64,000 nucleotides of DNA, from NCBI GenBank assembly GCA_030704615.1, contig CM060733.1, forward strand, positions 49,538,001 to 49,602,000, written 5' to 3'. The position numbers and the translations under genes were made by a program. The notes beneath the pieces were generated by a model that saw only the letters and a program-made list of their open reading frames with translations, was not told the DNA's origin and made no database searches. Positions 18,960-43,770 of the stretch are shown in pieces (position 1 is the stretch's first letter; the number at the start of each line of letters is the position of its first letter). This DNA is from Takakia lepidozioides. Taxonomy: Eukaryota > Plantae > Bryophyta.

Positions 18960-19114
18960 GGGATGCACATATCCATAAAGTTGTTCAAACGGATCTCGTA
19001 GTATACAGGGCAGTAGAAGAAGAAGTGTTCTTCAGTTTCAATTTCCTTGTTGCGCCCTATGCAAGCTGGACATAGGCGGTCCTCCCGTTGCAGGTTTTCC
19101 CATCTGCCAGTCTC
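18960..19114 (-). mobile_element. LINE ORF2 3' end (Zn-knuckle), distal half of a LINE split by the MULE
   Basis: ETGRWENLQREDRLCPAC..ETEEHFFFYCPVYYEIR; joins in frame to 33445 when the MULE and one TSD are removed. Confidence 0.88.
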
Positions 19115-19533
19115 AGCGTAGCTACGGCGTGAGCCCAGCCCCGTGAGCCTGGGAGCTGAGCTCACGTTCAAGCTTTGAAGCGTGAGCTGAGCTCACGCTT
19201 CAGGGAAGCGTGAGCGGCATGAATCTGCTGGAGAAGCAGGTCCTATAGGCGAGGATTGCAGGAAGAGGGCCTATTACCGTGGACAAAACAAAGGAGGCCA
19301 CCATGCACCATGTCTGCAATGCGTGCCAAAAAAGAGGAATATGTAAATATGGCAGATTTGAGCTCAGAATGATTGACACAGTTTATTTCAATTCACAGAG
19401 AGACGCTTACAATGAATCGCAAGTGCATTTGCCCTGGTTCCGTGAACGAAATGTATATGTTTGTCATAAAATGAAAAGTCTTCACACGGCAACCTGGAAA
19501 CCAGCATGGGAAGCGGGCATGGCTCGTATGTGT

Positions 19534-22500
19534 TCAAAGAGAAGTTGGCGGAGCTCTACGCAAGGTGTCCCGCTGCAGAAGGGTGATGACTTCTCCGTAG
19601 CCTAGTGTGGCTTGGTGAATGAATTGGTCTCTCTTACCGTCACAACACATAATTACAAGGTATATGTAATATTGATGCTTGCAGGGGACCCACTTCCCTC
19701 TCATGCCGAGAGCGCCCTCACGCATTGTTACAAAATCCGGACAAGTGCACGATGGGAAATTCCCGATGGTAACCTGATATTCTTTGGCATGAAGAACTGA
19801 GCCAATTGACAGCACTGTGTAAATCCGTCCATACCCCGGGGAAGGGACTTCGGTGATACGAGTCACCCTAGCCTGCAAAATTCTAGCCGATTCCATCTTG
19901 CATTCGTGATCTGCACCCGAAGCAACACGGCGCACTGTTTTTCCATCTCTTTTTGTTGGGTGGGAGTCGGCACCGGGTGGAGGCATTGTCGGAGCATGTG
20001 GCACATCTGTGCCGACAGTGCATAAGGGCACCACCCGGGACCGTGCAAGACAAAACCCTCCCTCCTCCAGCATGCTTATCTCGGTTGAGGACAGCGATGT
20101 CCCAATTTTCACAGGCCAAATTGCGGGGGGAGGGGGCTTCATTATCACGGAAGGACGAACTGTTCCCTTCACGCATCGTGCCATATCGTCTGGGCAGAAC
20201 CAAAACTTGTGCTCTTTTGACTCCCCACTATGGTAAGGTCGGAACAACCCTGTGAATGTTGGAGCTGGAGTCCCCCTGGAGCCTTTGCATATTTTTGATT
20301 TGCATTTCTTGAATGAGGGGGTCCGAATTGCCATGCAAGCCACTCTAGATCCCGGTGGGGTGCGTTCTATATGCCAGTCACTATCAATGCAATCAGATTC
20401 CTGCACCATGGCCACCACCTCCTCCAATGGGATTTCCGCTGCTATGCTTGCATGTTCTGCACCTGCTCCACAGGAGGAGGACCCACCTGGGAAGGGGCCG
20501 GCACAGGACTTAGTCTGCACTGGAGACACCTTTGGCACAGAGAAATTGACCCTGTCTGGCCTATGGGAATCTCCATCTGACCCTGGAAGAGTGTTTAATT
20601 TCCTTTTGCATGATCCAAATCTTTCCTCGCCTTCCAAATGGGGGAGCCTGGATTGCAGAGGGGAGCCTTCAGTGCACCTGTTTAGAGCTCTGGCCATCTT
20701 TGACGGGTCTCCGGACCTACTCGCAGCCCTTAGCATCAACAAAGTCGTATCGGGGCCCTTCCCTCCACCCCGTCCCATCAGAAAATTGCGGTACCTGGTT
20801 TGTTGTGTAAGTGCCCGCACCATGTCATCAGCAGTGGCCACATACAAGTCACGACCTGCTTTGGTAGACTGTTGCATCCAGGCGTTGTGAACAGTCTCTG
20901 CCAAATTACACGATGGCATGTCGGCCAAGTCCTCCAAGGACATGTCCTGCAGGAGGCATTGCATGGAAATGTGAGGAAGGAAAAGAAATGGTAGAGGTTC
21001 TTCAAGTGACAATCGAACAACCCCAAATGAACAGGCACGATGCAAAGTGCATTTTGTGTTTAAGGAAAACTTGTGAGGCTTACCGTCGTCATGAAAGCTC
21101 CCCACTGTCTGTACCTGAAGTGCCAGAAAACCAACCAGTCCTCCAACTCCTTCAGGTGGATACCTGTAGCAGCACCAGAGGAGAACCACCAAGCCCGGAT
21201 TGCCTGGTAAGTGCTCTCAGCTTCTCCCATTGAGGTGGCATTCTTGTACTTCAGACAGAGCCTTCTATGCTCCAACTGAAGGTCAGGGCGAATGCAGCGC
21301 TTTGTATGACGTGCCAGAGATTGACTCCAATGGAAGAGGCATGTGCGCTCCCTATTTTCCATTGGGACCTAGGATCCCCCGAACCAAACACGCGCCGCAC
21401 TGCATTGAAATTTGCCTGTGCACTATCAGCCATGAAGCCCGCAAAATTTGTGTTCTGTATTCCATTGCGCTGCATGACGGCCAGGAGGGAATTCCACATG
21501 AGCATCTGGGATTCAGTGTCCTCCGACTGCATATCACAAATTGCTATGGAGAGCACACGCTGGTACGCTGGATCATACACATGGCACGCCATGGTTGTCC
21601 AACCCTTCACCCGTTTGCAGTGATCAAACATTAACCAACATTTAGCCAAATCTCCTCCAGGTTGCATTCGGCGGACAATGCTCACACCACTGCCTTGGCC
21701 CACAGCGGACATCTTGAACAAATACACTTTGGACGAGCCCTGGCCAGGGAACATACTGTTTTGAATGAATTCATAGCGACTCCTCCGTTTGAGGTCCATA
21801 ATGTTGTCCATGAATCCAGCAGTGCCTGTGCCCATTCTGAGTGCATTCACCTGGTTTCGAATATTGGGAGAGCTCAACACGGAGAAATGGTCCATGACTG
21901 CCTCAAGGGAATCTGCATCCAGCATTGGCTGTGTCGCATCCCCTTCACCCAGTATGTGTTTTTCCAGGAATGCCTTGCTAGCTGCAAGCGCTATAGCAGA
22001 AGGTGTTGCACAAGGGGCATTGTGGAACTCTTGCTTCAGTAGATTTCTAGCGATGTCCACGCTATCCCTGCAACTCCCTTTGGACACAGGATGCTCGTGT
22101 GCACCCATATGAATGCAGGCACGAGTCATTGTCTTGCATCGATGTGCCACCTGATACATACGAGCGTGGCAAACAGAAACACAGGACGGGGAAAGTTTGC
22201 AGAACCTGCACACAAAAGTATTGGTCTTGGGAGGTGCAAGCCCTGGGGTGAAAGGATTCAGGGGCACACCTTCCCACTCACTTTCGTTTGGCTGAGCGCT
22301 GTTTCTCAGCCGAGGGCAAGAAATATTCAGGCACTTGCAATGCCCAACGCAAACCGACCTCCGAAATTTCAAGCCAATGTCGTTATGGATGTTCGACGTT
22401 TTTGTCCTGCACCAAGGATGTCCGTCATGTTTCTTGTCCATGCCCTGCAGAAGCCCAGCCAGTCCACTGGAAGACGTGGGAGGGTTGAGCTCAAACAAGA

Positions 22501-23113
22501 TGTCCCCATCAAACTGAGCTGGCACGTATTGAACCCGTTGCACTGGAAGGGACTCCCAATCAACAAAACGTAGCTCGCTCTTGCACCCAGGCACACCTGC
22601 GAGGGCTTTCAATTTTGGAATGACACTTGTTATCTCTTGCAATTCGTCATCATCCAATAAGGGAGTTTGCACTGGCGGAGGAATCTCAGAAACATCCTCC
22701 GAGGACGAGTCCGAAAGAGTCACGAAGGTAGTGGATGTGCTCACCTCTTGTTTCACAGGAACTGTGCCCTTCTGTTGCACGACCGATGCTGCAGTGCCAG
22801 GGGTAACGACTGATCCTGCTGATTGTCTTCTCTCTTTTCCAAGGACACGGTATGTTCCTGGAAGGACTCTCCACTTCCTTCCACACTCGCCAACCAAGGG
22901 TTTCTCCAAGTGCCCAGAATCCAAATTCCCATCCTCGTCATACACCTCTTTCTGAACAAGCAGAGAACCCAACTCCAGCGGGAACACTGTAACCAGCTCA
23001 TCCTCATGAACAACTGCATACCCATCGTCGTCTGCAGTGGCAGTCAGTGGAAGAGTACCTGCATTGGAATGGAATCGAGCGAGTGCATCTCGCTCCCTCG
23101 ACATGTTTTCCAT
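19534..23113 (-). CDS. MULE transposase, ~1150 aa: GCM/WRKY-like Zn domain, DDE core, Cys-rich insert, SWIM finger; exons 23113-21084 and 20946-19534; one 1-nt frameshift near 21370
   Basis: DGHPWCRTKTSN..RSVCVGHCKC..C..CRFC..C..GAHEHP; LMFDH..FMADS..CLFHW..CNLAETVHNAW; FPSCTCPDF..PCKH; same intron position in copy B. Confidence 0.88.
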
Positions 23114-24046
23114 CACTGAACGAAACTGGCGATTCAGAACGGAATCCCCGAACTGAGAGCCCGTAATTATCGAAAGTGGAAATACCACCAGCAAACTGAG
23201 GTCAACAAGGGTAGCACCAAACCAAAGGCTGCCGGCGATGCATGCCAAGGATGTAGGGATGACGTGCACCTTCACCTCCCACCAACCAGAAAAACCGTTT
23301 TGAAAGACCAGAGCCACAAGAAGCCGTGCTGTTTTTGGATGGAAAACAAACCCTGAAAATGACATGAAACCATCCATTATGAAATGACGGCAACAACCCT
23401 GGAGAGCAGTAAACAGGAAGATCCGATTGTAATGAGATTGTGTTGCGCCAGAATAGCACAGAACAAACACTGACACTCCAAGAGATACCTCGCACGAATG
23501 TGTGCAACACATGGTCATATCCGACAAAATCCTTTATACCGAATGACCCCATGGGGACGGTCACGGCATAAAAAAAACCACAGGGCATGCAGTACAACAC
23601 ACGTGGATGCATATGTGAAGCATAACAATTATTGCGAATCTGGAAGAACTGCTCGGAATTGAAAAAGCACTACATTTCTACGGCACATTCGAATTTGAAA
23701 GAAGGCAAGGAGGCCGCCATGTATTGGCAGGCGGCGAAGTACATCTGACATATATCGCAAATGCATGCAACGGATGTTCTTTTTCTTCGGCGCTTTATTA
23801 GCTGGGTAATACAAAGACGCCAAAATGGATGAATTCCGTTCGCACACAATATCAACACCCGCATCCAAATACGGTTGACAACGTCCATTTTTATTTTTGT
23901 TACATGCGATACCAGGACTTGTTGCAAACGTCAAACTGGAGAGCTCCAGGGGCATCGTGGGGAGCCCTTGTTTCCAGCGGAGGAGAAAGAGAAGGAAGTC
24001 ATTATACTTCACGAGTTCTAGAAACAGGAATAGAGCTAGATATAGA

Positions 24047-27000
24047 ATGAGGATGGAAAGAGTGGAGGAAAAGGAAAAGGAGGAAGAAGAGGGAATACAG
24101 GAAAGTGTGGCAATGGAGGAGCAGGAATCTGGAGAAGAACAACAACCCAACATAGTTCCAGGAACAGGCGAGGAGGACACTGCGTCTGAGGGAGAGACAG
24201 ACGACATGGAGGAAGATGTTGACACTGGCCTCACGAAGAATGTGACCACGGGAAAGAGGAAGGGGGAGAGGCTCACCTACATAGTCGGCGAAGAGAGCAG
24301 CCCGAAGCGGAAAGGGTCCCCGGCAACTGGGGAGTCTTCTCGAGTACCTACGAAAAAGGTAAAATCTACAGGACCCACATTTGTGAAGAATTCGGCTTTC
24401 AATGGCAGGTATTTGAGAGAGAAAGAACCATTCAGTGGCAGCTCAAAGAGTGTGCGTTGCCGCACACTGTTTGAGCTGCACAAGTCACTGTTTAAAGTGC
24501 AAAATTCTTCCTTCAACGACACCTTTCTGAGGATGAAATGAACCCCGCACTTCCAGCTCAAACAGTGTGCGGCAACGCACACTGTTTGAGCAGATCTTCT
24601 CAATGTTTTAGGGTGCAAAATTTGGCCTTGGAGTCAGTTATCTGCGGGTGAAATGAACCCTTCACTGCCAGCCCAAACAGTGTGCGGCAACGCACACTGT
24701 TTGAGCTGAACATTTCAATGTTTTAGGGTGCGAAATTTGGACTTCAGGGGCACCTTTCTGAGGATGGAATGAACCCTGCACTGCCAGCTCAAACAGTGTG
24801 CGGCAACGCACACTGTTTGAGCTGAACATTTCAATGTTTTAGGGTGCAAAATTTGGACTTCAGGGGCACCTATAATAGGATGAAATGAACCCTTCACTGT
24901 CAGCCCAAGCAGTGTGCGGCAACGCACACTGTTTGAGCTGAACATTTCAATGTTTCTCGGTGCAAAATTTGGACTTCAGGGTGATCTATTTGAGGATGAA
25001 ATGAACCCTTCACTGTCAGACCAAACAGTGTGCGGCAACGCACACTGTTTGAGCTGAACATTTCAATGTTTTAGGGTGCAAAATTTGGTCTTCAGGGTAT
25101 GTTATCTGAGGTTGAAATGAACCCTTCGCAACCAGCTCAAACAGTGTGCGGCAACGCACACTGTTTGAGCAGATCTTTTCAATGTTTTAGGGTGCAAAAT
25201 TTGGTCTTGCTGTCTGTTATCTGAGGGTGAAATGAACCCTTCACTGCCAGCTCAGACAGTGTGCGGCAACGCACACTGTTTGAGCTGAACATTTCAATGT
25301 TTCAGGGTGCAAAATTTGGACTTCGGGGGCACCTATGTGAGGATGAAATGAACCCTTCACTGTCAGCCAAAACAGTGTGCGGCAATGCACACTGTTTGAG
25401 CTGAACATTTCAATGTTTTAGGGTGCAAAATTTGGTCTTGCTGTCTGTTATCTGAGGTTGAAATGAACCCTTCACAACCAGCTCAAACAGTGTGCGGCAA
25501 CGCACACTGTTTGAGCAGATCTTTTCAATGTTTTAGGGTGCAAAATTTGGTCTTGCTGTCTGTTATCTGGGGGTGAAATGAACCCTTCACTGCCAGCTCA
25601 GACAGTGTGTGGCAACGCACACTGTTTGAGCTGAACATTTCAATGTTTGTGGGTGCAAAATTTGGACTTCAGGGTGACCTGTTTGAGGATGAAATGAACC
25701 CTTCACTGTCAGCCCAAACAGTGTGCGGCAACGCACACTGTTTGAGCTGAACATTTCAATGTTTAGGGTGCAAAATTTGGTCTTCAAGGTATGTTATCTG
25801 AGGTTGAAATGAACCCTTCACAACCAGCTCAAACAGTGTGCGGCAACGCACACTGTTTGAGCTGAACATTTCAATGTTTTAGGGTGCAAAATTTGGTCTT
25901 GCTGTCTGTTATCTGAGGGTGAAATGAACCCTTCACTGCCAGCTCAGACAGTGTGCGGCAACGCACACTGTTTGAGCTGAACATTTCAATGTTTCAGGGT
26001 GCAAAATTTGGACTTCAGGGGCACCTATCTTAGGGTGAAATGAACCCTTCACTGCCAGCTCAGACAGTGTGCGGCAACGCACACTGTTTGAGCTGAACAT
26101 TTCAATGTTTCAGGGTGCAAAATTTGGACTTCAGGGGCACCTATAATAGGATGAAATGAACCCTTCACTGTCAGCCCAAACAGTGTGCGGCAACGCACAC
26201 TGTTTGAGCTGAACATTTCAATGTTTCAAGGTGCAAAATTTGGACTTCAGGGGCACCTATGTGAGGATGAAATGAACCCTTCACTGTCAGCCCAAACAGT
26301 GTGCGGCAACGCACACTGTTTGAGCTGAACATTTCAATGTTTTAGGGTGCAAAAATTGGACTTGCTGTCTGTTATCTGAGGGTGAAATGAACCCTTCACT
26401 GCCAGCTCAGACAGTGTGCGGCAACGCACACTGTTTGAGCTGAACATTTCAATGTTTTAGGGTGCAAAATTTGGACTTCAGGGGCACCTATAATGGATGA
26501 AATGAACCCTTCACTGTCAGCCCAAAAGTGTGCGGCAACGCACACTGTTTGAGCTGAACATTTCAATGTTTCTCGGGTGCAAAATTTGGACTTCAGGGTG
26601 ACCTATTTGAGGATGAAATGAACCCTTCACTGTCAGCCAAAACAGTGTGCGGCAACGCACACTGTTTGAGCTGAACATTTCAATGTTTTAGGGTGCAAAA
26701 TTTGGTCTTCAGGGTATGTTATCTGAGGTTGAAATGAACCCTTCGCAACCAGCTCAAACAGTGTGCGGCAACGCACACTGTTTGAGCAGACTTTTCAATG
26801 TTTTAGGGTGCAAAATTTGGTCTGCTGCTGTCTGTTATCTGAGGGTGAAATGAACCCTTCACTGCCAGCTCAGACAGTGTGCGGCAACGCACACTGTTTG
26901 AGCTGAACATTTCAATGTTTCAGGGTGCAAAATTTGGACTTCAGGGGCACCTATGTGAGGATGAAATGAACCCTTCACTGTCAGCCAAAACAGTGTGCGG

Positions 27001-30000
27001 CAACGCACACTGTTTGAGCTGAACATTTCAATGTTTTAGGGTGCAAAATTTGGTCTTGCTGTCTGGTATCTGAGGTTGAAATGAACCCTTCACAACCACT
27101 TCACACAGTGTGCGGCAACGCACACTGTTTGAGCAGATCTTTTCAATGTTTTAGGGTGCAAAATTTGGTCTTGCTGTCTCTTATCTGGGGGTGAAATGAA
27201 CCCTTCACTGCCAGCTCAGACAGTGTGCGGCAACGCACACTGTTTGAGCTGAACATTTCAATGTTTCTGGGTGCAAAATTTGGACTTCAGGGTGACCTGT
27301 TTGAGGATGAAATGAACCCTTCACTGTCAGCCCAAACAGTGTGCGGCAACGCACACTGTTTGAGCTGAACATTTCAATGTTTTAGGGTGCAAAATTTGGT
27401 CTTCAGGGTATGTTATCTGAGGTTGAAATGAACCCTTCACAACCAGCTCAAACAGTGTGCGGCAACGCACACTGTTTGAGCAGAACTTTCAATGTTTTAG
27501 GGTGCAAAATTTGGTCTTGCTGTCTGTTATCTGAGGGTGAAATGAACCCTTCACTGCCAGCTCAGACAGTGTGCGGCAACGCACACTGTTTGAGCTGAAC
27601 ATTTCAATGTTTCAGGGTGCAAAATTTGGACTTCAGGGGCACCTATAATATGATGAAATGAACCCTTCACTGTCAGCCAAACAGTGTGCGGCAACGCACA
27701 CTGTTTGAGCTGAACATTTCAATGTTTCAGGGTGCAAAATTTGGACTTCAGGGGCACCTAATATGATGAAATGAACCCTTCACTGTCAGCCCAAACAGTG
27801 TGCGGCAACGCACACTGTTTGAGCTGAACATTTCAATGTTTCAGGGTGCAAAATTTGGACTTCAGGGGCACCTATGTGAGGATGAAATGAACCCTTCACT
27901 GTCAGCCAAAACAGTGTGCGGCAACGCACACTGTTTGAGCTGAACATTTCAATGTTTTAGGGTGCAAAATTTGGTCTTGCTGTCTGTTATCTGGGGGTGA
28001 AATGAACCCTTCACTGCCAGCTCAGACAGTGTGCGGCAACGCACACTGTTTGAGCTGAACATTTCAATGTTTCAAGGTGCAAAATTTGGACTTCAGGGTG
28101 ACCTGTTTGAGGATGAAATGAACCCTTCACTGTCAGCTCAAACAGTGTGCGGCAACGCACACTGTTTGAGCTGAACATTTCAATGTTTTAGGGTGCAAAA
28201 TTTGGTCTTCAGGGTATGTTATCTGAGGTTGAAATGAACCCTTCACAACCAGCTCGAACAGTGTGCGGCAACGCACACTGTTTGAGCAGATCTTTTCAAT
28301 GTTTTAGGGTGCAAAATTTGGTCTTGCTGTCTGTTATCTGAGGGTGAAATGAACCCTTCACTGCCAGCTCAGACAGTGTGCGGCAACGCACACTGTTTGA
28401 GCTGAACATTTCAATGTTTCTGGGTGCAAAATTTGGACTTCAGGGGCACCTGTTTGAGGATGAAATGAACCCTTCACTGTCAGCCCAAACAGTGTGCGGC
28501 AACGCACACTGTTTGAGCTGAACATTTCAATGTTTTAGGGTGCAAAATTTGGTCTTCAGGGTAACATTTCTGGGGATAAAATGAACCCTTCACTGTCAGC
28601 TCAAACAGTCTGCGGAACCGCACACTGTTTAGGCAGAACATATCAATATTGAAGGGCGCAACCTTCGGCCCTCATGGGCACATATCTGAGGATGAAATGA
28701 ATCCTTTACTGCCAGCTCAAACAGTGTGCGGCAACGCACACTGTTTGAGCAGAACTTTTCAATGTTCTTTCCCTGTGAAAATCGGGAACATAGGGCAGGT
28801 CCGTGAGGATCAATGAACACTTACCTGGCAGCTCAAAGAACACTTACCTGTTTGATCCCACTTTTTCATGCATCAGTCGACGTTTCATTCCTCTCTTATA
28901 AGAATTTGAGTGAACAACCTTGCAGGAGAAAATGCAAAGTGTGGCGGATGAGGTCCCTCAGGGTCAGGGGAAGGAGACCATAGTTGATGTTGACGATGAG
29001 TTTTATGAAAGCAAAGCCGCTGAGATGCTGGGGGTCAAAAGGTGAACTCTCAGCTTGTGGTTCAAAGTATGCTTGCTCCTGGTGGGAGGTTGAAGATTCC
29101 CCTGTGTAGGTTGGTTTCCATGCCCGTCGTTCGTCCACCCCTTGTCAAAGACATTCTCAAGCTGGAGGCCGAGTTTGTTCATGGGTATTTGGATGGATCC
29201 GCAGTCTTTTACGTTTCTACTAGGGATTCTAGAGGTAACGAGCTCCTTGTGGATGAGTCAATCGTCGACTCCTGGGACCCCATTTGGAGACAGGTGAACG
29301 AATCCTTCGAACTTCTTCTCTCCAGGAAACCTTCCACCCAGGTATTCTCGGGGAAGATGTTTCACGTTTGGGATGGCAACCACCGGTTGCTTGCATGGAT
29401 GGCTGTCATTGGGAGGCTGCACTCACAGGAGGAAGAGTGGCATTACTCTGTTCGATCGATGGTGCTTGATTGTGACGACAACATGATGGGTCTTCTGACG
29501 GCAATGAATGATGTGAACAGGTTGGTTTCTCATTGTACATGTTGCACTTCTGGTTCCGTTCTTCCTTGATTCAAGTCCTTGAATTACATTCTGAAATTCA
29601 GATATCATTCTGCAGAGGGACGGAGACATCGCATGTCAAAACGAGTCTGGTTCACACACTGTATAGGATACAAAGGATCGGGCAGATGCCCTTGACCAAC
29701 TTCAAGACCATCCTTTCGGCAGAGATGTATAAGAAATGCGAAAGCTCCAAGACTTCGGAAACATGGTACTCGTTGACCCGTGAGGCTTTCATGGAGTACA
29801 TGTACACGGTGAGATACATCTTCCTTCATCTGGCCTTTCCATATTCCTGCTTCCACATGTTTGTTTCTGTCTGTCTCCCTTGACCTTGGATTGATGCAAC
29901 TCTCTTGCATTCCCTTGCAGCAAGACATTGCAGATGCAGGGGAGCGTGGCAAACTGGAATACTACAGCTCTACCCCTGAGGAGAGAAGGACAGCAAAGGG

Positions 30001-32658
30001 GGTTGAAAGTCACATCCAGAAGGAGATGAACGCTACAAGAAGGACAATAATGAGTGCTTTTGTGAAGCAGTTGAGAATGGCCGACCCATCATTCGGGCCG
30101 CAGTTTCTCCTGGAGATAAAAAACCATTATAACAAGCCAGGCAAGCCGGAGATGGCCCAGGAGAAGTTGCACAGGTTGTCTACCGCCGTCGTGTCTTCTG
30201 AACAGAAGGTGAAGTGGCTACAGATATGGAACTCCGATCCCACAGTTAGGGATACCCACATGTTCCCAAGGCCAGAGAAAGAGAAGAAGACCCAGCGTGT
30301 CGTTCCTGTCAGTGACAATGTGCTGGACACCTGGCTTCACAAGGCCACTTACTGGAGCCAGGTGTGATGTCCTCTCGTATCTCACTTTCTTTTCTCTTTT
30401 CCTGTCCTTCTCTTCCCATTGCCTCTTACATTCGCTGTGACTGTTTTTGGGTTCATTCTTCCATTTCAATTGTTTTGCAGTTGGAAGAAAGGGCCCGATC
30501 GGTTCTGCATACTCAGCTGGCTGACTATGGCATCACTATGACAGCTCCGAAGGTCTCCTTCGAAGCTTACATGAGGAAATGGAGAGCCACAGTGTGGCAC
30601 TCTGGTTTCTTTAGAGAGTTCAGCAAGGAGGGTGGCATCAGTCGAACAAATGAGCTTGACCAGCAGGAAAAAGGAGAGGAAGCCTGGAAACGATGCCTTT
30701 ACAGGTGCACACCCTTGCACTCTTTACTTGTGTTGTGGTTGCAATGTGTTGTGTGGCATACTGTTTAAGGGGGTCTTCCTGGTGTGTTGAAAAAGCTGGG
30801 ACACAATATGTGCACTGGAAAATGAGGCTGTGTCTGTTCCTGCAGGTACATTAGGTTTGTTCTCTTGGAAGAGAATTGCTTGGACAAACATCCAGATTTC
30901 GTGGACCTTTGGCTTGTCCCTGCTGGCAACCAGACCATGTTCACTGCTGGGATCTTGCATGACTGGGGCCCAGACCATCTTTCTTCTTGTGGTTGGTATT
31001 TGGATTGCCCTCCTTCAGAGACCCCAGCTGTAGAGTTGTCTTTGAGGAGAGAGAATGACCGTATTGCAGCCACTGCCGCAGCAGCGGACCTCGACATTCA
31101 TGAGCGTAATCTGAGGACTCTTGCAGAGAAGGAGCCTCCCGCTCAGGATACCCCGGGTAGAGGAAGAAAGGCAAAGGGAAAAGATGTTGCTGGTGTTGTG
31201 GGGAAGGGAAGGGGTAGAGGGAAGGTGGCACAAGGGCAGGGAAGTGTTGCAGCTATTGGCCCTGTGGAGCATGTCCAGCAGACTCCACCGCATGGTAGGG
31301 GATCCGGGAGAAAAAACAAGGGGGTGGTTGATCCAAGGACCCGTACCATGCAGTGGAACATCCCACGAGGGTCATTCGTCCAACCAGGTTGGAGATTGCC
31401 AACGTCGGGTTCCTTGCCATGATGGAGTCGAAGAAATCTGATTACAAGGGCGAGCCATCACCAGTGTGGGAGAGGATTGTCGAGTTCCTCAGCACGGTGC
31501 GTGTTCTCTTTGGGTTCTGTGGCTTCTGCTCTCTTTGTCTGCTGTGGGCATGGATCGTTTATAAACTTGTCAGAATTCCATTGTATTTTTGTTTGCAGGC
31601 TAAAATGACCAAATCGTGGGTGAACGGGAAGGAGAAGCCATATGCAGCGGAACTCATCATCTTGGACATCCCTGATGGGTTGGCAGTCCCGGATATCCCT
31701 CCATCGGGTGCTTGTCCGGGTTGGAATGCATTTGATGAGCGCTACTGGCGGTGGGTTTTTTCCTTTTGCAACTTCTTCCTTTCCGATGCAGGTGTTTTGG
31801 TTCTCATCCAGTCCATCGATGTTCGGTGTCGCCGTGCCCTTGCCAGCTATTTGAAAGCCTCGGGCATGAGAGTCGTGAAGACATGGAATTGTGTGAACAG
31901 CATGTACCTTACGAAGGGGGATCGTCCGGGAGAGATGGTGAGTTTCCCTTCTTCTTCCTCTTCTTTTTTGTTCTGGGATTGTGTTGTATAGGTCGCTCGA
32001 ACTCATATGTAGGGGCCCGATTTTATTTTGGTTCTTAGTTCCTTGTGGATGTCATGTTCGCAGACTCGTCTGTTTGAAGCTGTTTGTCTCGTCCGGGTGC
32101 ATCCACCAACGACTCCGGCCGGCATTACGGAGTTTGCCATCACTCACGGGGGCAAGTTCATAGATGACAGGACAGATCCTCCCACGGATGACATGCATCA
32201 CAACTACGTCGACAACAACTTGTGCTTGCGAAGGGGGAATGGGGTTCCTTGGAGAGGGGCGAGGGAGAGGAGCCCGGCTTTCATTCAAACGATTGTGGAG
32301 TGCTGCACCTACACAGACGCCAGAGTTCTGGATTTGTCGATGGGCACAGGTTCGTCTCTTCAACATTCACATTTCATGAGGTTTGATTGAGCTTGCACTT
32401 TCAGCACTTTCCACCGTTCCGAATGTGTCTTCAATGTTGCTTACTTCATTCTATTCCACTGCAGGTGCTTCGTACCACGCTTGCAAGGCCAGTGCGCGAC
32501 ATGTCTTTGGGATTGAAGGGGATGCTGAGATTTACAAGAACCTCCTGATGGGTTTGGGTGGACACACTTCTCAGGTCCTTCCGAAGCCCCGTCCCGCTGA
32601 TACTGGTACAGAGGAGACTTCTGACAAGGAGCTGGACTCCGACTTTGCCTGTGAGTAA
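24047..32658 (+). CDS. ParB/Srx-like domain fused to a beta-class N6A/N4C DNA methyltransferase fold, ~1080 aa, 9 exons (24047-24358, 28926-29520, 29616-29808, 29921-30361, 30481-30704, 30846-31496, 31599-31937, 32064-32349, 32465-32658); 1-nt frameshifts near 29030 and ~31330
   Basis: ParB-like IPLCRL..VRP..HGY..FHVWDGNHRLLAW; MTase motif-IV-like ELIILDIPDG followed by ERSPAFIQTIVECCT..VLDLSMGTGASYHACKASARHVFGIEGDAEIY; all introns GT-AG and in phase; intron positions shared with copy B. Confidence 0.8.
24420..28770. repeat. Tandem array of 38 ~115-116-bp units, each with a palindrome of up to 40 bp, in intron 1 of the ParB-MTase gene
   Basis: CAGCTCAAACAGTGTGCG-GCAA-CGCACACTGTTTGAGCTG counted 38 times (first and penultimate degenerate); a ~22-bp variable segment takes a few recurring variants. 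Confidence 0.96.
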
Positions 32659-33444
32659 GTTCAACCTGTGCATGCTTGCATTGTTGTTTCAATATCGAGA
32701 ATCGCTGTTCTTGAGGCAAAGTGCACATGGGAGACATCCTCTTCGTTGGACTTGTGCATTGCATCATTGTGTTAAAAATGGGATTTTGTGGACATGTGTA
32801 GGAGTCCGCGTGCTTCCACTTGCCCTCCTGGGCTATCACACCTATTTGGACTTGTTTTCAGTCCTCCTCGGTCTTGTGTGCTACCTGTCTATGCGGAGGC
32901 ACTCGCAGCAAGCATGTCCGTTCATGGCACTCAGAGTCCACCTTGCGATGGCCTTCGTAGAACACGTGGTGTTGGGGCCAGAATCTTTGTAGATGACATA
33001 GCACAGGAGGTGGACACTGATTGTGATGACTGCGACACTTGATATGAAGTATTCTTTTGGTTTAATTCTGGGACAAATTTGAAATGGGATGGTTGTGTGT
33101 CCTTATTGTCCTCTTTGCAATGTGTGCGTGGAATTCACATTCATGGTTCCAAACTATTGTTGGAGATGGGGGTTGCATGGACTGCCCGGATTGTTCCTTC
33201 AATATATTTGTTGTTTTGTGGACCTCACAGACTTGAGTACATTGCAAAAACAAACAAACCACTTTGTTCTCAATTCTCAATTCTCCCCACATCAACCCGC
33301 GGAAATAGGTGACACCACTCGGAAATAGGTGACATCCGCGGAAATAGGCACTGTTTGCATGCTGACGTGGCGTGAGCCTGTGCTGGGCTCACGCTTTCCT
33401 GGGCTCACAGGCTCACGCCTCCAGGCTCACGGAATAGCACCCCC

Positions 33445-34440
33445 CTGCCAGTCTCTATCCGTAGGTTGTGGGAACCCACCCTGAACCGCCCCAATGCCCT
33501 CAAGAGGGAAGGAGGTAAGGGTGCTGAAAGGTAATTTGGTCTGAAGATTCTATCATCGCGGAGCACCAAGAATGTCTCTCGATAGAAGTGGAGCTTTGTT
33601 GTGAGATTGGGTAGCATCCAAGTTCTCTTGACATGTAATTCCATAAGCTCTCTCCGAATGAGTCTGTTGCGGTCATGTCTGGATGTGATGTCCACTTCAT
33701 CTGGGTTCATTGGTAATAGGAAAGCAGTAGAAAGTTCGTTACGTTTCAATAAACTGTCCACTCGAGCATACCAGGAGTTCCCGAAACTTGCAGCTTTGAG
33801 CCTCATAGATGTTGTGAGGGCCCTTGCCACTAGCCCTTTGGGTGGAAGGGCCTGCAATCTATGGAGAAAGATTGTAAGCCTGAACTGTGCCTCGGATTGC
33901 AATGGTACACATGTGAACTCTGCACCTAGGATCTGAGATGGAGTTGTGCTCCTGGCGCTAAGCATTGATTGGAGAAAAGATGACTGTAATGGTTCCAAAT
34001 TCTTTTCCCACCAGGAGACAGGGACACCAGGTGCCCAGAACTCACAACCATTGATGGTAGCAGGGCTGACGATGGTGTCAAACAGCCACTTTTTGGTCGG
34101 GGGATGCCGCAGATGTATTTGCTTGCATTTGGCGTGAAGGCGGACGGAGGCCACCTTACCTTTAGTCAATCTGTCCAAGGCAGTGGCTGCAAAGTGAAAC
34201 TTGGGGGAGTGGATAACCAGACCTAGGTACCGGTATGATTTGACAATCTCAATTTCCTACTGGTTGAAGATGAATCTACGATCAGCCTGGCCATTGAAGA
34301 CCATGATCTTGGTCTTGCTAAGATTGACTTGCATCCCATAGTCTTTGCAGAACTATTCCAAAATTTTGAGATGGCGTTGCAGAAAGACCGGGGATTGTGC
34401 CAAAATGGCAACATCATAAGCGTAGAGGAGATCTGATTGG
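33445..34440 (-). mobile_element. 5'-truncated LINE ORF2 fragment (RT C-terminal part), proximal half
   Basis: LLYAYDVAIL (YADD-like), VNLSKTKIMVF, YRYLG, LFDTIVSP..GCEFW, FRVGSHNLRIETGR. Confidence 0.88.
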
Positions 34441-35499
34441 GCAGAAAATGAAGTTAGGCAGAAAACATCCCTGAACATGTTTTCAATTTGTGACATGGGG
34501 GAGGACATCGTGGAAAAACCTTCAGGTCTACCACTGTGTGCAGAGGGACTAGTTTTTAGGTCAAGGAAATGTTGCTTTGTCACGTCATTGCACCTGCGTT
34601 GGAGTACGCATTTGCTATATGCGTTGATAACTCCAACGAGGCTAGGTCTGCAATATCCTTTCAATTGAATTGTGTCTGCACCTGTGTTTACCAACATTGA
34701 GAGTCTTTAGGCCTTTTGGGGCTCCGTTGCTGGGCTCCGCCATACAGCCATTTGCTGATTGTGTGAATAGATGTCCACTGGATATGTGCAAAACCCGGAT
34801 GGATGGTAAGTTTCATGTGGTACTGATGTGAACCCGCCCACATTCTGTTTCTTCACCAATGAATGGTCTTACATGTTATGAGGACATTCTGTCCCTCTCC
34901 TTTTCAGTTTTTGGCACTTGCGCTGCAGGGGAGTGGGTTTGAGGTCAGCCAATCCATAGTTGTGGTTGTGGGATGGTTTGTGCTCTGGTGACGTTGTGTT
35001 CAGTAGGACTACAGCTGATGCACCTTGTGTGTGGGATGTTTTTGGTAGCGGAAGGGGAGTGAAGCTGCAGCAAAGCACTCACAGCCACCACACAATGCCA
35101 ACCAACACCAACCTTGGCACCCACCCCCTGCCGGATGGTCTCCACAACAGAGTGCACCATGGGGAGCCCCCCCTGCTTCGGGGTCGTGGCGCTGGCTTCC
35201 TGATGTTGCCACGTCACAATGGGGGCCTCCCACATCTCCATACGGCCCTCCCCCCTCCGGCACACATCAGTCACCCCCCACAACGTATGACGGCGCTGCT
35301 CCAGAGCATGGGGGCAGGAAACGGACATCAGAGCTGAGGAAGGAACGACGCCATGCCATGAAACAATGGGAAGGAGATGGAGAGGGAAGGGTGGCTGCAG
35401 GGCTAAAGCGCCACAAGGTGGAGGTGCATGGAAATGGAGTCATCAATGTTGGCTGCGAAGGTAAGGAACACTGGCAGCGTGATTTGCGTGGCTTGGCAT

Positions 35500-37465
35500 T
35501 GCGTTACCTTGACTAAAGCGTACAAGACATTGACCCGCAGTCCCAGAGTGCCATGTCAACAATAATAGAGGGCATAAATGGAATGTACGAGTACACACCT
35601 ATCCCTGCCAATCGTGATTTTATAGTGAAGCAATGTGGGAAGATAATGAAAGGAGAAAGAGCAAAACTGAAAGATAAATGGACGAAGTCTGGTGTGAGGC
35701 CAATGAACACTGAACCCGCCTATTGGGATAAGCTTGTTGCCTACTGGGAGTCCCCTCGTGGACTTGCAAAGGCTGAAGGGATGAAGCAAGTGCGTGCTTG
35801 TATCACGAACCCCTCGCGTTGGGGCCGGGCAGGAGTTGCAGGCCAAGCAGCCCGTTTGGTAATCTCCCTCACCCCCTTCTCATTGCTCTTACGTTGTGGC
35901 ATGTTCTGATGGAAGAGACACCCACGAGTGGGTTTTATTGCTTGTGCAGAATTAGTTGTTATGTGATATGTAGGGCAGTGCTTTGTCCATATGCTCCTGG
36001 CATTTTGTACTGACAGTGTGTGGATGGGCAAATACAGAAAAGACGCAAAGCGCGGAGCCCGTCACTGTCCGAGCTCGGGGCGGAGCAAAAGAACGCTGCG
36101 ACTGGCACCCCATCAGAGTCTGTTTTGAGCCAGGTATGTTTTGAAGTCCGGTTTCCATTCATGAATCTGTTGTTGTACTAAGATTTGGTGGGTATGTGGG
36201 GCCCCCACGCATGGTACAGGAGGGGTGTTATGCCAAACCCAGCCATCTCCGAATGCCTGAAATCCTGCACATTCGGCCTCTTCTTCTGGTTTTTAACAGT
36301 ACGGGTGGGTGTTTGTATGCGTAGGGAGCGGGGAACTCAATGGCAGCCCGCATCGGGGCCCTGGAGAGGCTTGCGGCTCTCTCTGTGGAGCGGGAGAGGG
36401 GAATGGAAGCACAACTGAAGAAGATAGTGGAACTCATGATGGGGCAAAAAGGGGGTGTGACGGGTGGCATTATGGAAGACCCCCCTGCTGCGACCATTGT
36501 ACCTGACAAGGAGGAAGTAATTGTAGTGGGTAGGGATGTGACAGAGGTCCGGGCTGTTGTTGATGATATTCACAGTGGGGGGCAGGGTCCACTCGTTGAA
36601 GAGGGAGAGGTCCAGCAAGTTGGTGGGGATGACATGGACGATGGGGGGGTCATTGCTCATGATGGGGGAAAAGGGGAAGCTGTAGGGGGAGAGGGTGGTA
36701 GTTTGCCTGGTCCAGGCTGCAGGGGGACCAAAACTTTGCCCTCTGGGGTGACTGTTGTCTCCCAACCCACTAAGGTGAGACCCCGTGACACCCCTTCAAA
36801 AGCTCCTTTCATAGAAAAGTCGAAACTAATTGTTCTAGACCTGAACGGGATCCTGTGCCACTCTATTCCTAACTTTCAGCCCAACCCGAGGCGTCATTGG
36901 CCATGGGTGTTGACCACCAACAAATATGTTTTCCCAAGGCCCCAGGTCTGTGAGTTTTTTAACCTTCTCTTCCGGTATTTCTACGTTGGGATATGGTCTT
37001 GTGCTTCCAAGGGGAATGTTGCAGACATCTTCAAAGTGGTGATGCAGGGGGGTCAAGGGTTCTCCCCTCTTTGTGTGGTCACAAGAGGAGTGTGACCCCT
37101 TGACAGAGCCACACCCCACAAAAGGGCCTGCTGTACAGAACTTACAGAAAAGACTGTCGAGGGTGTGGTCGGAATTTTCTGGATTTAACGAATCCAACAC
37201 CCTCCTAGTGGATGATTCACCACACAAGGGGAGGGGGAACTCCCCTTTGAACATGGTCCATCCATTGTCGTTTGATGTCACTGGCAATGTCAGTGAGGGG
37301 CCCGATTCAGACTACCTTTTAGAAACAGTCTGGCCCTACTGCCAAGATTTGTTTTGCTCCAAGGATGTGCGTGTCTTCACAAGCACGCGGAAGCTGACCC
37401 CAACTGGCAGCTTGAATGTAGGAGAGGATGGGGTCGTTGGGGGAAGTACTTCTGCGCCCATGCAG
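35500..37465 (+). pseudogene. CACTA-2 TnpA-like exons followed by an FCP1/NIF (HAD) phosphatase-like domain; further exons at ~44528-45060 beyond the gypsy insertion
   Basis: ERAKLKDKW..PAYWDKLVAYWES..SRWGRAG (TnpA-like); KLIVLDLNGIL..FPRPQVCEF..VGIWS..NTLLVDDSPHK (FCP1-like); frameshift near 37075. Confidence 0.72.
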
Positions 37466-37535
37466 GTGAAACTAACCTTACTGTTTGCAACATGACATCG
37501 AAGCCAAAGTCCATGTTTGTTTTGTTCCCCCTGGA

Positions 37536-38258
37536 TGTCGCGCACCTCACTTCGGTAAACTCCCCTTCAAGTCATAGTTAACCGCTTTGATGCGCGCGCC
37601 TGACTCCCAACCTGGCCGCCGGGCCAACTTGGAGTTTCGGCTACTCACCGGGACATAACGGTCCCCATTCGCTTCCTCTAAAACCCTCCACCTATTTGGG
37701 ACTAGGAGAATTCCCTTTGGTAGATGGCAGTCCGGAACAGCTCCCCACTCTTTGGTCGCTTTCCGGCTCGCACGATTACTCACTAGTTTTTGGTCACCAA
37801 CGGGCTTGCACCGTTCTCGGGGTTACTACTCCCTATATATACTTCTGTAGCTGTCCGCGGGGGTTTCATAACCAGCCATGCCATTTTATGGCGAACCACC
37901 ACGAAAACCCTCGACTCCCGGTGGTGAGTCGCGGTGAGTCTTGGCCCACTCACCGCGGCCCCAATGGACCATGATGAGTCCCAAGACTCCCCACGACTCC
38001 CACCTCGAGGTCTCCACCCCATGGTGAGTCCTATGCCACCCCCACTAAGTCCCACTAAGCTACCACCACCCCTTGTGGAGCCACCTCCACCGCAACCCGG
38101 TGTGCGGGGCTCCACCTAGTGAGCGCCTCCGCCTCCTTGAGTGCCTTGGGCACTCAAGGGTGCTTCAGCCCCCATACCTATCGTCGCCGCTGCCCCCACC
38201 ACAGGGGCAGCCCCTCATGTGTCCCGACCCCCTGCCCTCAAGGCAAAGGGCCGCGACA
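37536..38258 (-). repeat. 3' LTR (723 bp); PPT adjacent at ~38259-38270
   Basis: Near-identical to 43771-44484; GGTAGGGGTGTG on the minus strand abuts it. Confidence 0.96.
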
Positions 38259-39169
38259 CACACCCCTACCAACAGGGAGTCGATGTCCTCATCGACTTGT
38301 CCATTTTGTAGAAACGAACATCCAAGTTGTGGCGTCCCACATCAAGGAGTTTGTTTCCGTACCATGGCGTCCCATGGCAAAGAACCAAACCCCACACTTG
38401 ACTCCACTCTCCACTAGCTAGTTCGGCCGACTTCCTCCAAGTCCCGGCCAAGGGTGGAGCCTCTCCAGCTCCTCCCAGTGCACTCTTCTTGGCCTACTTC
38501 AAGGCCAAGGAACGATCCTCCCCGAGGATCGAATCGCCTTACTGCAACAACATTGCTTGCGATCGCTCATGATGCCGCTTTTGGCATCACCTTGAGCAAG
38601 GGTTCACCTGGAACCCTCTTTGACTAGGAAGATAACCTTGAACCAACCGTGCGCCCCAATCACTACAATTGGGTCCGCCTTGGAATGCTGGCCTGAGGTA
38701 CAGGAACACGCCGAAGCCGCACTACGACTTCGTCCCGAGGCTACACGATTATAGTACGTGAACGGAAGCACGTAGCTTCCGCGTTAGCCCGCACTACAAG
38801 GCAACCCCCTCGGTAGCGCAGTTATAGTACGCGCACGCGCCAGGTGCGCACTAGCACGTGAACTCCCAAATAAGGCGCAAGTTTCCTTGCCCCTTGGATG
38901 GGAGTCACCCGATTTCGGCACTGCGCAAACACACGATTAACTCAATTTACCTCTCCTACTTTTGTAAGCTAGCATGCATTCTACACACTAGTCAACCACA
39001 CCATGCATCACCATTTTCAAACACAATAGGACGCACAATATTTGGAACCCATTTCCTTTATAACAAATTTTTGTACAATACAAGTTTTTGCAATCGGATT
39101 CCTGAGCTAGCTAAACCGGGCTAAGATGCATTTCCTCCCCCACGCTCCAAGGTTGATGTCCCCATCAAC

Positions 39170-42100
39170 GTTTCTTCCGCTTTTGAGGTCGCCCTTCGAA
39201 CGCTGCAACTGCCTCGGATGCGTTTCCCATTTCTGAGGCACGCACCCAAGATGCCTCCACAAGATGATAGCCCTTCCATTTGACGAGATACTCCGTTTCT
39301 CGGTTCTTGAACCTCCTCGACTTAAGTATTGCCTCCACCTCGTACTCGGTTCATTTTCATGATCCAACAGCATAGGTGGCGGACGCAACACTTGCTGCCG
39401 ATTCGGACGTGCTTCATCTTTGAAGTAAGGCTTCAAAAGGGAGACATGGAATACTGGGTGCACCTTGCTGTTTGCCGGCAGCTCCAATTCATACACATCC
39501 TCATTCATAACCTCCGAATGCGAAAGGGACCCGCATACGGAGGTACGAACTTCGGACTCACTTCCGGAGGTAGTCGAAAATTCTTGATGTTCAACCAGAC
39601 CTCTGTGCCTGCCTCAAACTTCACTTCCCTCCGCTTCCGATTCGCCTGCCTTTCATACCGTTTCCTAGCTTTGGCAATGTTGTACTTTGCGAGCTTCAAC
39701 AAACGCTCGCGTTCTTCCAGTACCGCCGCTACTGCCGGTTCCTCAACGTCCTGGGCGGCCCAACTTGTCGGCACCAGAGGTGCTTTTCCATAGACCAATA
39801 CAAAAGGGGAAACTCCCGTTGCGGAGTGTTCTGTGTTATTATAACAGAACTCTGCCGCGTCTAAGTGTTCCATCCAGTCTGATTGGTCTGCCGACACGTA
39901 ATTCCGCAAGATTGCTTCACTACGGAATTCACTCTTTCCGTTTGGCCGTCCGTCGTAGGTCGGAAGGCGGTGCTCATCTTCAGCCTCGTCCCCATCTTCT
40001 TCCAAAGTGCTCTCCAAAATTTACTCGTAAACTTTGGATCGCGGTCCGAGACAATATCCTTCGGGACTCCATGATGCTTTAAGACGTGGGCGAAAGTAAA
40101 GTCGCCCTGTCTCCTGCGCCGTTGCCGTCTCCTTGGTGGGGATGAAATGGCCATTTTACTGAACCTATCTACCACCACCATGATTGCATCGAATCCTTTT
40201 GACAGCGGCATAGCAGTCATGAAATCCATCGAGACGCTTTCCCAAGTCCCCTCTGGAATCGGCAAGGGTTGTAACAGCCCCGCTTGCTTTTTTGTACTCG
40301 CTCCGGTTTTGTTGGCATGTGGTGCATGTCTTGACATACTCCTCTGCCTCCTCCCCTCAGTTTGGGCCAGAAATACTCTTTCTCAAGAGTGCCGCAGTGC
40401 GCTTGGCTCCGCCGTGGCCCGCAAGCGGGCTATCATGGCATTCTCTCAAGAGGCTATCTCTGATCCCTCCCTTTTGGCACGTAGAGACGTTTTTGCTTAT
40501 ACCGGAGCAGTCCATTTTGCAAGTGGAACTGCGATTTAACCCCCTTCTCAAGTCCTGCATCACGCGACTTTGCCAGCTCATCCTTCCGGCAAGCCTTCCG
40601 GATCTTCCTTTGGAGCGCCGTCTCGCCCTTGTACACCACAAGAGCTGCTGCTTTCTACTTAAAGCATCGGCCACCACTATGTCCCGTCCCGGTTTGTACT
40701 GGATATCCACGTCGAACACTGCCAAGTATCTTGCCACCTAAGTTGTTTTTGGGGACAACTTGGGCTGCGTGGCAAAATACTTCACCGTGACATTGTCCGT
40801 GAACACCTTCACTGGGTTGGAACCAACATAGTGGCGCCAGAGTTCAAGGCATGCACCACCGCCTTCATCTCTTTTTCGTGCGTCGGCCACCGTCGCTCCA
40901 CTTCATTCAGTTTCTTACTTTCGTAAGCCACTGGTCGTCCATCTTGCATAAGTACACCCCCAATCGCGAAGTCCGATGCATCTGTATGAATCTCAAACGG
41001 ACGATCGAACTCCGGGATTTTCAAGACTGGAGCTTCCGTCATCCGCTGCTTCAATTCAGCAAAAAGCTTGGCCACAAATGTGTTCCATACCCAGACTTTG
41101 GATTTACACAGAAGGTCCGACAGCGGCCCCGCGATCTTGGCGAAATTTCTTCACATACTTCCGGTAATAGGAGCGAGTCCTAGGAAGGATCGCACTCCCG
41201 GGACCGAAGTCGGAGGCTCCCAGTCCAAGATCGCCCTCACCTTTCTGTCATCCATTTTGATCCCATCCTGTGTAATCACATGCCCCAGGAACTCCACTTT
41301 TGTGAACCCCGAATCGCACTTTGAAGCTTTGGCATACAGCTTCCCGTCCTCCGCAATTTTTGGAACACCCTTTTGAGGTGCTCCAGGTGCTCCTCCTTTG
41401 TTTTCGGTACACCAAGATGTCGTCGATGTACACGATCACAAAGTCTCCAACCACTCCTGGAAAAAGGCTGTTCATCAGCGTGCTAAATGTCGCTGGTGCA
41501 TTGGTGAGCCAAAAGGCATCACCAAGAACTCATATGAACCATACCTTGTCCTGCACGCGGTCTTCTCCTCATCTCCTTGCCACCCGAATTTGGTGATAGC
41601 CGGAGCGCAAGTCGATCCGGCTGAAATACTTCGCTCCTGCCAACCGATCGAAGAGGTCGTCGATCCTTGGCAAAGGGTACCGGTTTTTGATAGTCACCTT
41701 ATTCAAAGCCCTGTAATCGACACACATCCGCAGCGTCCCATCCTTCTTGTCTGCGAATAGCACCGGGGCTCCGTAAGGTGACTTACTCGGCCGGATGTAC
41801 CCTTTGACATTAGATCCTTGAGCTGAGTCTTCAGCTCGACCAACTCTCTGTGGCTCAACCGGTAGGGGCGCCTTGGCAGCGGTTCCGATCCCGGTATCAC
41901 CTCAATCTTGTGGTCAACTCCTCTTCGCGGTGGCAAGCCGCTTGGTAAATCCTCCGGCATCACATCCTGGTATTTCTCCAAAATCCCCTTGATCCAATCT
42001 GGGCTCGGCTCCCCATCGCCTTCTCCTTCCACTTCTTCTCTAATGTAAAGCAAAAACTGGGACTCGTGTGCCTCCTCCACGGCCCACTCCTTGCTGACAG

Positions 42101-43720: not shown

Positions 43721-43756
43721 AGGCCGATCCAAGGACGATCGCGTACTGAACTCTAA

Positions 43757-43768
43757 GCTCTGATACCA
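43757..43768 (-). promoter_or_regulatory. Primer-binding site (initiator tRNA-Met)
   Basis: TGGTATCAGAGC on the minus strand, 2 nt from the 5' LTR. Confidence 0.95.
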
Positions 43769-43770
43769 AA

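Follow-up and report, generated by a model that had tools for sequence, protein, structure and literature searches.

A stretch of 64,000 nucleotides from the bryophyte Takakia lepidozioides (assembly GCA_030704615.1, contig CM060733.1, positions 49,538,001 to 49,602,000; hereafter the window) contains an intron-containing gene, carried by a nested Mutator-like element, whose first exon is predicted to adopt the ParB/sulfiredoxin (Srx) fold, whose last exons encode a methyltransferase-like domain, and which stands beside a tandem array of palindromes. We lean slightly towards reading the gene product as a nucleotide-gated, palindrome-loaded sliding DNA clamp with a regulatory or protective role for the element that carries it. 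The gene and its copies are laid out as follows (window coordinates).

28926–29520, plus strand: exon 1 of copy A, assigned to the ParB/Srx fold from the model and the motif; frameshift near 29030.
29369–29398, plus strand: Box II motif WDGNHRLLAW (GxxRxxA).
29516–29518, plus strand: codon of Asn162, the predicted Box III asparagine.
29616–30704, plus strand: exons 2–4, helical, a predicted ParB-like DNA-binding domain with long insertions, from GT–AG introns and a homologue model.
30846–31496, plus strand: exon 5, a conserved block followed by a low-complexity linker; second frameshift near 31330.
31599–32655, plus strand: exons 6–8, a beta-class N6/N4 methyltransferase-like domain with DIPD as motif IV.
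48967–49509, plus strand: gene copy C, frameshifted, internally deleted and cut by a CACTA end at 49510.
53966–58219, minus strand: gene copy B, with the exon layout of A, broken and with its 3′ end cut.

The Box II motif WDGNHRLLAW is identical in copy A (29369, plus strand) and copy B (57682, minus strand), as a preliminary description made from the letters of the window had noted; the two proteins, which it had judged roughly half identical, are 61% identical over the 162-residue exon, somewhat above half. The exon begins at 28926, directly after an AG, and is followed by GT at 29521, in agreement with the intron-containing gene proposed there. That description had also assigned the upstream IPLCR..VRP and HGY blocks to copy C: the former is present (49198, plus strand), and the latter is unreadable in the frameshifted copy. 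A 43-residue fragment of copy C is 65% identical to A, and the window copy lacks WDGNHRLLAW. A single contig loose end at 49454 runs on into this motif, and the C family therefore has it. Neither the Mutator-like carrier nor the methyltransferase-like domain fused to the ParB-like one had been noticed.

An AlphaFold2 model of the ParB exon, built on a 100-row alignment, has a predicted local distance difference test score (pLDDT) of 95.1 and a predicted template-modelling score (pTM) of 0.89. ParB/Srx proteins are its top matches in three structure libraries; in the Foldseek search that the preliminary description had called for, ranks 1–17 are all ParB, Noc, PadC, KorB or Srx, and phage ParB proteins lead the viral library (best E 0.005). 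Of the 48,161 chains compared in a complete structural scan, just 13 score Z 2 or more, all of the ParB/Srx type (SspE, Osa and BrxU included) except one salicylate methyltransferase (Z 2.3). KorB comes first (Z 7.6, root-mean-square deviation (rmsd) 2.6, 88 aligned residues), with PadC (7.4), Srx (6.3) and SerK (6.3) below it. On the strength of this model, it is almost certain that the exon encodes a ParB/Srx fold. The KorB alignment ends at model residue 162, which pairs with chain residue 146, and this asparagine, N146, is required for hydrolysis and clamp closure according to the available part of the KorB report (bioRxiv 10.1101/2024.02.16.579611). The models make it likely that N162 is the Box III asparagine and that a ParB-like DNA-binding region lies downstream of it, the two taken together.

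Searched against 1.84 billion representatives, exon B gives 550 matches at E ≤0.001 and 188 at 1e-10. From the 150 matches listed, 30 were looked up, picked mostly by length; they comprise seven Adiantum, three Riccia and 20 environmental records, so that, of the named members, seven come from a fern and three from a liverwort. An alignment search for longer homologues of exon B found four, all from Adiantum, and a word-based search among 498 candidates found none. Prokaryote genomes yielded 19 pattern matches, none of them confirmed as a relative; viral contigs yielded one match of 23 residues, and phage records no relative. Among the Pfam families listed for A, B and 100 family members, PF02195, the model of the ParB N-terminal domain (NTD), does not occur. 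The metagenome set used below comprises 33 clusters from 80 loci, out of 122 relatives, and the motif is present in its representatives by construction of the search.

Residue conservation was read from 152 aligned rows, with the rows spanning each column as denominator. The hallmarks of the family are R34 (108/135), a helix with GY at its end, an insertion of about 45 residues rich in Trp, the motif DGNHRxxAW and N162 (77/89). The intact GxxRxxA motif proposed at the outset is no chance match: G115 is kept in 117/135, N116 in 130/134, H117 in 123/134, R118 in 104/133 and A121 in 98/131 rows. Sulfiredoxin carries its catalytic cysteine at the position that N116 occupies here. This asparagine argues against an Srx- or SerK-like enzyme or nuclease module with no clamp role, in which case the palindromes would be transposase sites, hairpin relics or small inserts, an explanation that we hold to be very unlikely. 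It draws on the single domain, on which Srx and SerK come within about 1 Z unit of KorB, on faint DndB matches in 4 of 100 members via a DGxHR-type motif, and on the capacity of the palindromes to fold as hairpins (folding z −5.15 for the 116-bp array unit described below). Once the following exons are included, full ParB chains align far better than Srx, and the palindromes track the ParB-like exon, not the ends of the element.

The gene of copy A consists of eight exons and seven introns of 95–141 bases, about 970 codons in all with a provisional start; the introns are placed from GT–AG ends and the agreement of A, B and homologues only, the copy B junctions fall at places matching A, and the last splice donor of copy A is the GT at 32350. 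For the region following exon 1, the Riccia homologue P0141 was modelled (pLDDT 68.6). This model aligns to nearly all of the NTD and DNA-binding region in each of five bacterial ParB/Noc structures (Z 8.3–8.9, rmsd 6.0–6.6), including 190 of the 194 residues of Myxococcus xanthus ParB (Z 8.9, rmsd 6.0) and 198 of the 199 of Bacillus subtilis ParB (Z 8.5, rmsd 6.5), whereas Srx covers just 89 residues (Z 6.3). The model resembles the closed, nucleotide-bound ParB, which it fits better than the DNA-bound forms (rmsd 10.5–11.7).

Exons 6–8 follow the beta-type motif order, from IV through to X and I, with a Gly-rich S-adenosylmethionine (SAM) loop at the end. Among the corresponding Riccia domains, two of five exceed the PF01555 cut-off, two fall below it and one has no match; the Riccia protein P0159 (1207 residues) has both the ParB-like and the methyltransferase ends, with PF01555 at E 5e-5, below cut-off. 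The Riccia methyltransferase profile matches the spliced model of copy A at E 7e-9 in a two-sequence search, a score to which exon 8 contributed nothing. PHROG DNA-methyltransferase families also match the domain, and CcrM and DpnA are its sole matches in a profile search of the PDB (E 0.75–0.91). Methyltransferase exons lie downstream in 6 of the 21 metagenome clusters with at least 2.5 kb of downstream sequence. From these profiles, the C-terminus very probably has a methyltransferase fold.

The general form of catalytic motif IV is (D/N/S)PP(Y/F/W). Here it is degenerate, reading DIPD in A and B and DIPE in locus L005, with the first proline also replaced; A, B and L005 all lack the aromatic fourth residue, which only one of the 17 matched proteins retains. 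These substitutions stand against an active ParB-guided DNA methyltransferase writing N4-methylcytosine (4mC) or N6-methyladenine (6mA) on its own element, as does the absence of a direct PF01555 match to the exons of the window in the Pfam scan. We consider that account improbable, with the motif order, the SAM loop and the Riccia, PHROG, CcrM and DpnA matches on its side. Also on its side, Marchantia has active 4mC enzymes of the same class, with TSPPY as motif IV (10.1101/2021.02.12.428880, in the part available), and methylation of this kind has been proposed for algal transposons (PMC12477816, likewise in part). Taken by itself, a standard active 4mC/6mA writer is unlikely for this domain, and a non-catalytic or altered module, for SAM or base binding or for dimer contact, is more likely.

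Each gene copy is accompanied by palindromes of its own.

24421–28766, unstranded: 116-bp tandem array of 37.6 units, each with one palindrome of about 32 bp, putative loading sites of copy A.
46971–48950, unstranded: copy-C palindrome family, 12 copies upstream, split by a 784-bp CACTA mini-element.
55546–56313, unstranded: copy-B palindrome family, seven copies in intron 4.
58176–58732, unstranded: copy-B palindrome family, five copies just upstream of the exon.

The copy-A palindrome has 38 matches in the window, all within 24441–28719, and its columns are 97.9% identical, against 87.7% in the remainder of the 116-bp unit. The copy-B palindrome, whose core is related to that of A, has 15 matches in all, including three weak ones near the far end. 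The three palindromes (38, 15 and 12 matches) are thus each confined to the vicinity of one gene copy or its element. Of the 33 metagenome clusters, seven were left out of the count because they have less than 1.5 kb upstream. In 16 of the remaining 26 loci, the 2 kb upstream contain a palindrome family of at least three copies; the same holds for 6 of 130 other bins of that size and for none of 520 shuffles. By eye, these upstream families represent about ten different sequences. A second cluster lies 2.3–2.8 kb downstream in L015 and L071, as in B. The tree of ParB domains groups some like palindromes (L015/L069/L071, L036/L047 and L040/L065) and not others (L022/L027), and the putative recognition helix is readable in few loci only; since related loci share palindrome labels anyway, we make no claim of co-evolution. 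Because A and B have terminal motifs in common but different palindromes, the transposase has other candidate sites.

Three further observations concern these arrays. The copy-A array is strongly depleted in CpG (observed/expected 0.38), yet the CG pairs in the palindrome core are kept. The CACTA mini-element within the copy-C cluster occupies 47660–48443 (784 bp) and has a 3-bp target duplication. In locus L034, a separate 13-copy palindrome array with 72-bp spacing lies 9.0–10.2 kb downstream of the match; it may precede a further gene of this kind beyond the limits of the locus.

The gene, its array and a transposase gene together form a Mutator-like element, which is itself inserted in a long interspersed nuclear element (LINE) within a CACTA element.

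8323–45400, unstranded: outer CACTA element, host of the nest, with Tnp2 at 10.6–16.9 kb on the minus strand.
19104–19114, unstranded: left target-site duplication, 11 bp.
19115–33444, unstranded: Mutator-like element A (14.3 kb), which carries the gene, recognised by the duplication and by inverted subterminal CGTGAGC motifs at both ends.
19537–23533, minus strand: putative Mutator-type transposase gene, spread over several frames and including a SWIM finger; the ParB-like gene runs divergently from it.
33445–33455, unstranded: right target-site duplication, 11 bp.
33456–34706, minus strand: LINE-like reverse-transcriptase frame hit by element A, continuing left of 19104.
60042–63399, plus strand: putative Mutator-type transposase gene of element B, with stops.
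63898–64000, unstranded: subterminal motifs of element B in common with A, the terminus lying just beyond the window.

Mutator-like elements leave target-site duplications of 9–11 bp, and members without terminal inverted repeats exist; element A has no long terminal inverted repeats, only the short inverted subterminal motifs. Excising its 14.3 kb restores, in one of three frames, 331 open codons (the other two have 14 and 56), and their translation looks like the final part of a LINE reverse transcriptase; zf-RVT is found at E 0.018 on the left LINE piece, and the right piece has no Pfam match. The transposase gives Transposase_mut at E 0.16 and SWIM at E 0.024, both below cut-off, and the signature positions D, D, CxxH and E are kept, by eye, in the transposases of A and B, whose genes are 53–63% identical by tblastx. 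The order in element A is transposase (minus), palindrome array, ParB-like gene (plus), and element B has the same layout inverted. A Cys/His-rich region at 22076–22810 (minus strand), before the DDE domain, has by eye a GCM-type zinc-binding look and no Pfam match.

The CACTA element at 8323–45400 had been considered as the carrier and was dropped in favour of this nesting. It has Transposase_21, DUF4218 and DUF4216 matches and, over 37 kb, terminal inverted repeats identical at 23 of 25 positions, with flanks that do not match as a 3-bp duplication. Past 45.5 kb, the contig depth drops from about 800 to about 20 (run X1), a measure used solely to place the boundary and not as copy number.

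How might the parts work together? A dimer would recognise the palindromes beside its own gene; nucleotide binding would close the dimer into a sliding clamp, which would spread along the element and control the two divergent genes at long range, as KorB does on its plasmid. Alternatively, its purpose might be sequence-specific anti-silencing, as with VANC on VANDAL elements. The clamp reading gains support from the predicted ParB-like DNA-binding region and the cognate palindrome clusters. Considered one at a time, binding of a nucleoside triphosphate (NTP) by the ParB-like domain is probable and binding of the protein to its cognate palindrome only a little less so, closure and spreading are evenly poised, and cytidine triphosphate (CTP) as the nucleotide is possible though doubtful.

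The chief competitor is a site-bound regulator or scaffold that sits on its own palindromes, its ParB fold with or without nucleotide and neither closing nor sliding, which we rate as unlikely though deserving attention. Its numerous tandem sites could stand in for spreading, as the tandem targets of VANC do in the accessible portion of that work (PMC5735166), and the second arginine of the canonical motif is a histidine here. The clamp reading, for its part, is favoured over such a scaffold by the retention of N162, the counterpart of the KorB residue needed for hydrolysis and closure, and by the closed-like P0141 model.

A number of results weigh against the clamp. The family has GNHR, without the double arginine of GERRxR or GARRYR in canonical ParB and KorB. 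PadC and other ParB-fold proteins bind without switching; ParB-fold proteins include CTP, adenosine triphosphate (ATP) and guanosine triphosphate (GTP) binders, 17 of 28 purified examples bound no NTP, and no rule predicts specificity from sequence or AlphaFold3, in the part of the study available (bioRxiv 10.1101/2025.10.10.680097). For this reason the nucleotide is not readable from the motif, and of the nucleotide-gated clamp or NTPase for a plant transposon suggested in the preliminary description, the ParB/Srx fold and the transposon setting stand while the nucleotide does not follow. The ParB exon has no Pfam or PHROG family match, phmmer and profile searches of the PDB gave it chance matches only and no solved relative, and Foldseek gave it no E below 0.001, its ParB/Srx-type top ranks notwithstanding. 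Structural Z scores under 8 can, by the tool's own warning, reflect a common arrangement. The DNA-binding match comes from P0141, which is 32% identical to exon A and 17–24% identical to exons 2–4, and whose model has a pTM of 0.52 and an rmsd of about 6; its closed pose may reflect the training of AlphaFold. In a wide scan, the ParB DNA-binding domain on its own reaches only rank 42 (Z 4.2, rmsd 7.1).

Other points on the same side concern the loci. Ten of the 26 metagenome loci lack an upstream palindrome family, and the Fisher p of 1e-10 for palindrome enrichment is overstated, the loci being related and some control bins coding. Among the 14 metagenome clusters with 8 kb upstream, a Mutator-type gene on the opposite strand is present in five or seven, according to which of two analyses is used, a CACTA Tnp2 in one (L080), and nothing detectable in the remainder. 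All three window copies are broken, B and C further than A, and stops occur in 29 of 33 metagenome cluster representatives (four being without). In L080, Tnp2 lies 0.8–2.1 kb upstream of the match, directly before the ParB-like exon, which suggests that CACTA elements may serve as carriers too.

Stops or frameshifts in every window copy and in those 29 representatives are what would be expected of a degenerate passenger gene, all of whose copies have lost their function, a possibility that we regard as extremely improbable. Both frameshifts of copy A, near 29030 and near 31330, are filled in other copies: contigs of 4/4 runs carry an extra base at each. The depth share with the extra base at 29029 is 161/2349, 13.9/13.9, 73.7/122.8 and 4.4/4.4, and at 31332 it is 699/2689 in one run and the full depth in the remaining three. 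Seventeen of the 29 coding variants considered, from the 40 of 327 rows listed, are silent, in excess of the share of about a quarter expected without selection. In addition, liverwort and fern members alike retain the motifs.

Accessory genes that join ParB to a methyltransferase have been described before, only as annotations in algal transposons. For green algae, in the context of the Ectocarpus element Sola1-1, Iyer 2011 is reportedly the reference given. Sola1-1_Ec32 encodes a protein of 1104 residues with ParB-like and N4C/N6A methyltransferase domains, opposite the transposase, and both the domain pair and the opposite strand are in common with the gene described here; the comparison, by description only, sets a brown alga and a Sola1 carrier against a land plant and a Mutator-like one, and the available part of the Sola1-1 account gives no palindromes, nucleotide motifs or catalytic status (PMC12477816). 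Among the accessory genes PAG2 and PAG3 of red-algal Plavaka elements, the ParB-like PAG3 adjoins tandem inverted-repeat arrays, PF01555 is part of the cassette, and the cassette moves between Plavaka, Mutator and Zisupton elements. There, as far as the preprint could be consulted, two genes encode ParB plus 2-oxoglutarate oxygenase and methylase plus SET, with the ParB call at an HHpred e-value of 0.29, whereas here one fused gene has a degenerate motif IV (bioRxiv 10.1101/2025.02.11.637652). Chlorophyte fusions of ParB with a helix–turn–helix belong to a different, Dam-like clade, in the accessible text of Iyer et al. 2016 (PMC4738411).

With KorB of RK2 and ParB/parS, the gene shares, on the models, the NTD fold, the Box II arginine and the Box III asparagine, followed by a predicted DNA-binding region and palindromes that sit on the mobile element itself; regulation by KorB works over a distance, in the portion of the report available (bioRxiv 10.1101/2024.02.16.579611). 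Unlike them, it has GNHR, the 45-residue or so NTD insertion, further long insertions among the helices, introns, and a methyltransferase-like C-terminus in place of the small dimer domain. No ParA ATPase is found among the window open reading frames scanned, a part of the 180 listed. Phage fusions of ParB with N6_N4 methyltransferase have the same two domains in the same order, as described in the available part of that study (bioRxiv 10.1101/2025.10.10.680097); the family here has no sequence similarity detectable in phage records or prokaryote genomes, and in it a helical, DNA-binding-like region separates the domains. Like VANC of VANDAL, the gene has a Mutator-like carrier and family-specific motifs in tandem repeats upstream and in introns; VANC, in the accessible text, is a DUF1985/DUF287 protein with short non-palindromic motifs and shown activity, as against a predicted ParB fold and palindromes of 20–32 bp here (PMC5735166). 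Srx shares the fold and GxxR, and is a small stand-alone enzyme as against the multi-domain protein here. A recent survey of the ParB fold gives sulfiredoxin as the form most often met in eukaryotes; words beginning 'transpos' or 'plant' do not occur in the main text of the survey.

No land-plant or Mutator-borne ParB–methyltransferase gene was found in the literature, where subscription journals, Repbase and preprint supplements (Bostrychia Table S6) could hold one; further works cited, each available in part, are PMC6431247 and 10.64898/2026.08.24.746577. New here are the land-plant lineage, the Mutator-like carrier, the degenerate methylase motif, the palindromes particular to each family and the models that support a layout of the clamp type. 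More speculatively, and with less confidence than the clamp itself, nuclear transposons of seed-free plants might carry a true ParB/parS-type system, in which an NTP-gated (possibly CTP-gated) clamp would load at palindromes and spread through chromatin, with a pseudo-methyltransferase set against host silencing and a co-diversifying code of self-recognition. Should clamping and sliding prove true, eukaryotes would have a nucleotide-gated DNA clamp of the bacterial kind, and this would add a second route besides VANC by which Mutator-like elements escape silencing, as well as a possible source of orthogonal DNA-loading tools. With its confidently modelled fold, the family offers two catalytic residues as targets for mutation and a large natural set of proteins paired with palindromes.

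The remainder of the window is occupied by other elements. The outer CACTA is much shorter once the nested LINE, Mutator-like and long terminal repeat (LTR) inserts are discounted, and 49510 marks the start of another left end belonging to this CACTA family. Within it, on the strand opposite Tnp2, 35250–37495 (plus strand) holds a TnpA-like frame (by eye, no Pfam match) followed by a NIF/FCP1-like phosphatase (PF03031, E 2.7e-7). At 37536–44484 lies a Ty3-type element with LTRs 98.5% identical over 726 bases, a 5-bp target duplication, and gag and a zinc knuckle on the minus strand. Direct repeats of 890 bp, 94% identical, surround a 466-codon minus-strand frame without Pfam match at 471–5764, probably an older LTR element. 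A 28-bp GC-rich repeat occurs six times at 46020–46527, ahead of a CACTG/TAGTG-like end, and may represent subterminal repeats from a different element. Finally, a high-copy repeat at 50366–51175 and 53838–53983 has minus-strand frames that resemble, by eye, fragments of pentatricopeptide repeats, and one of its pieces truncates the 3′ end of copy B.

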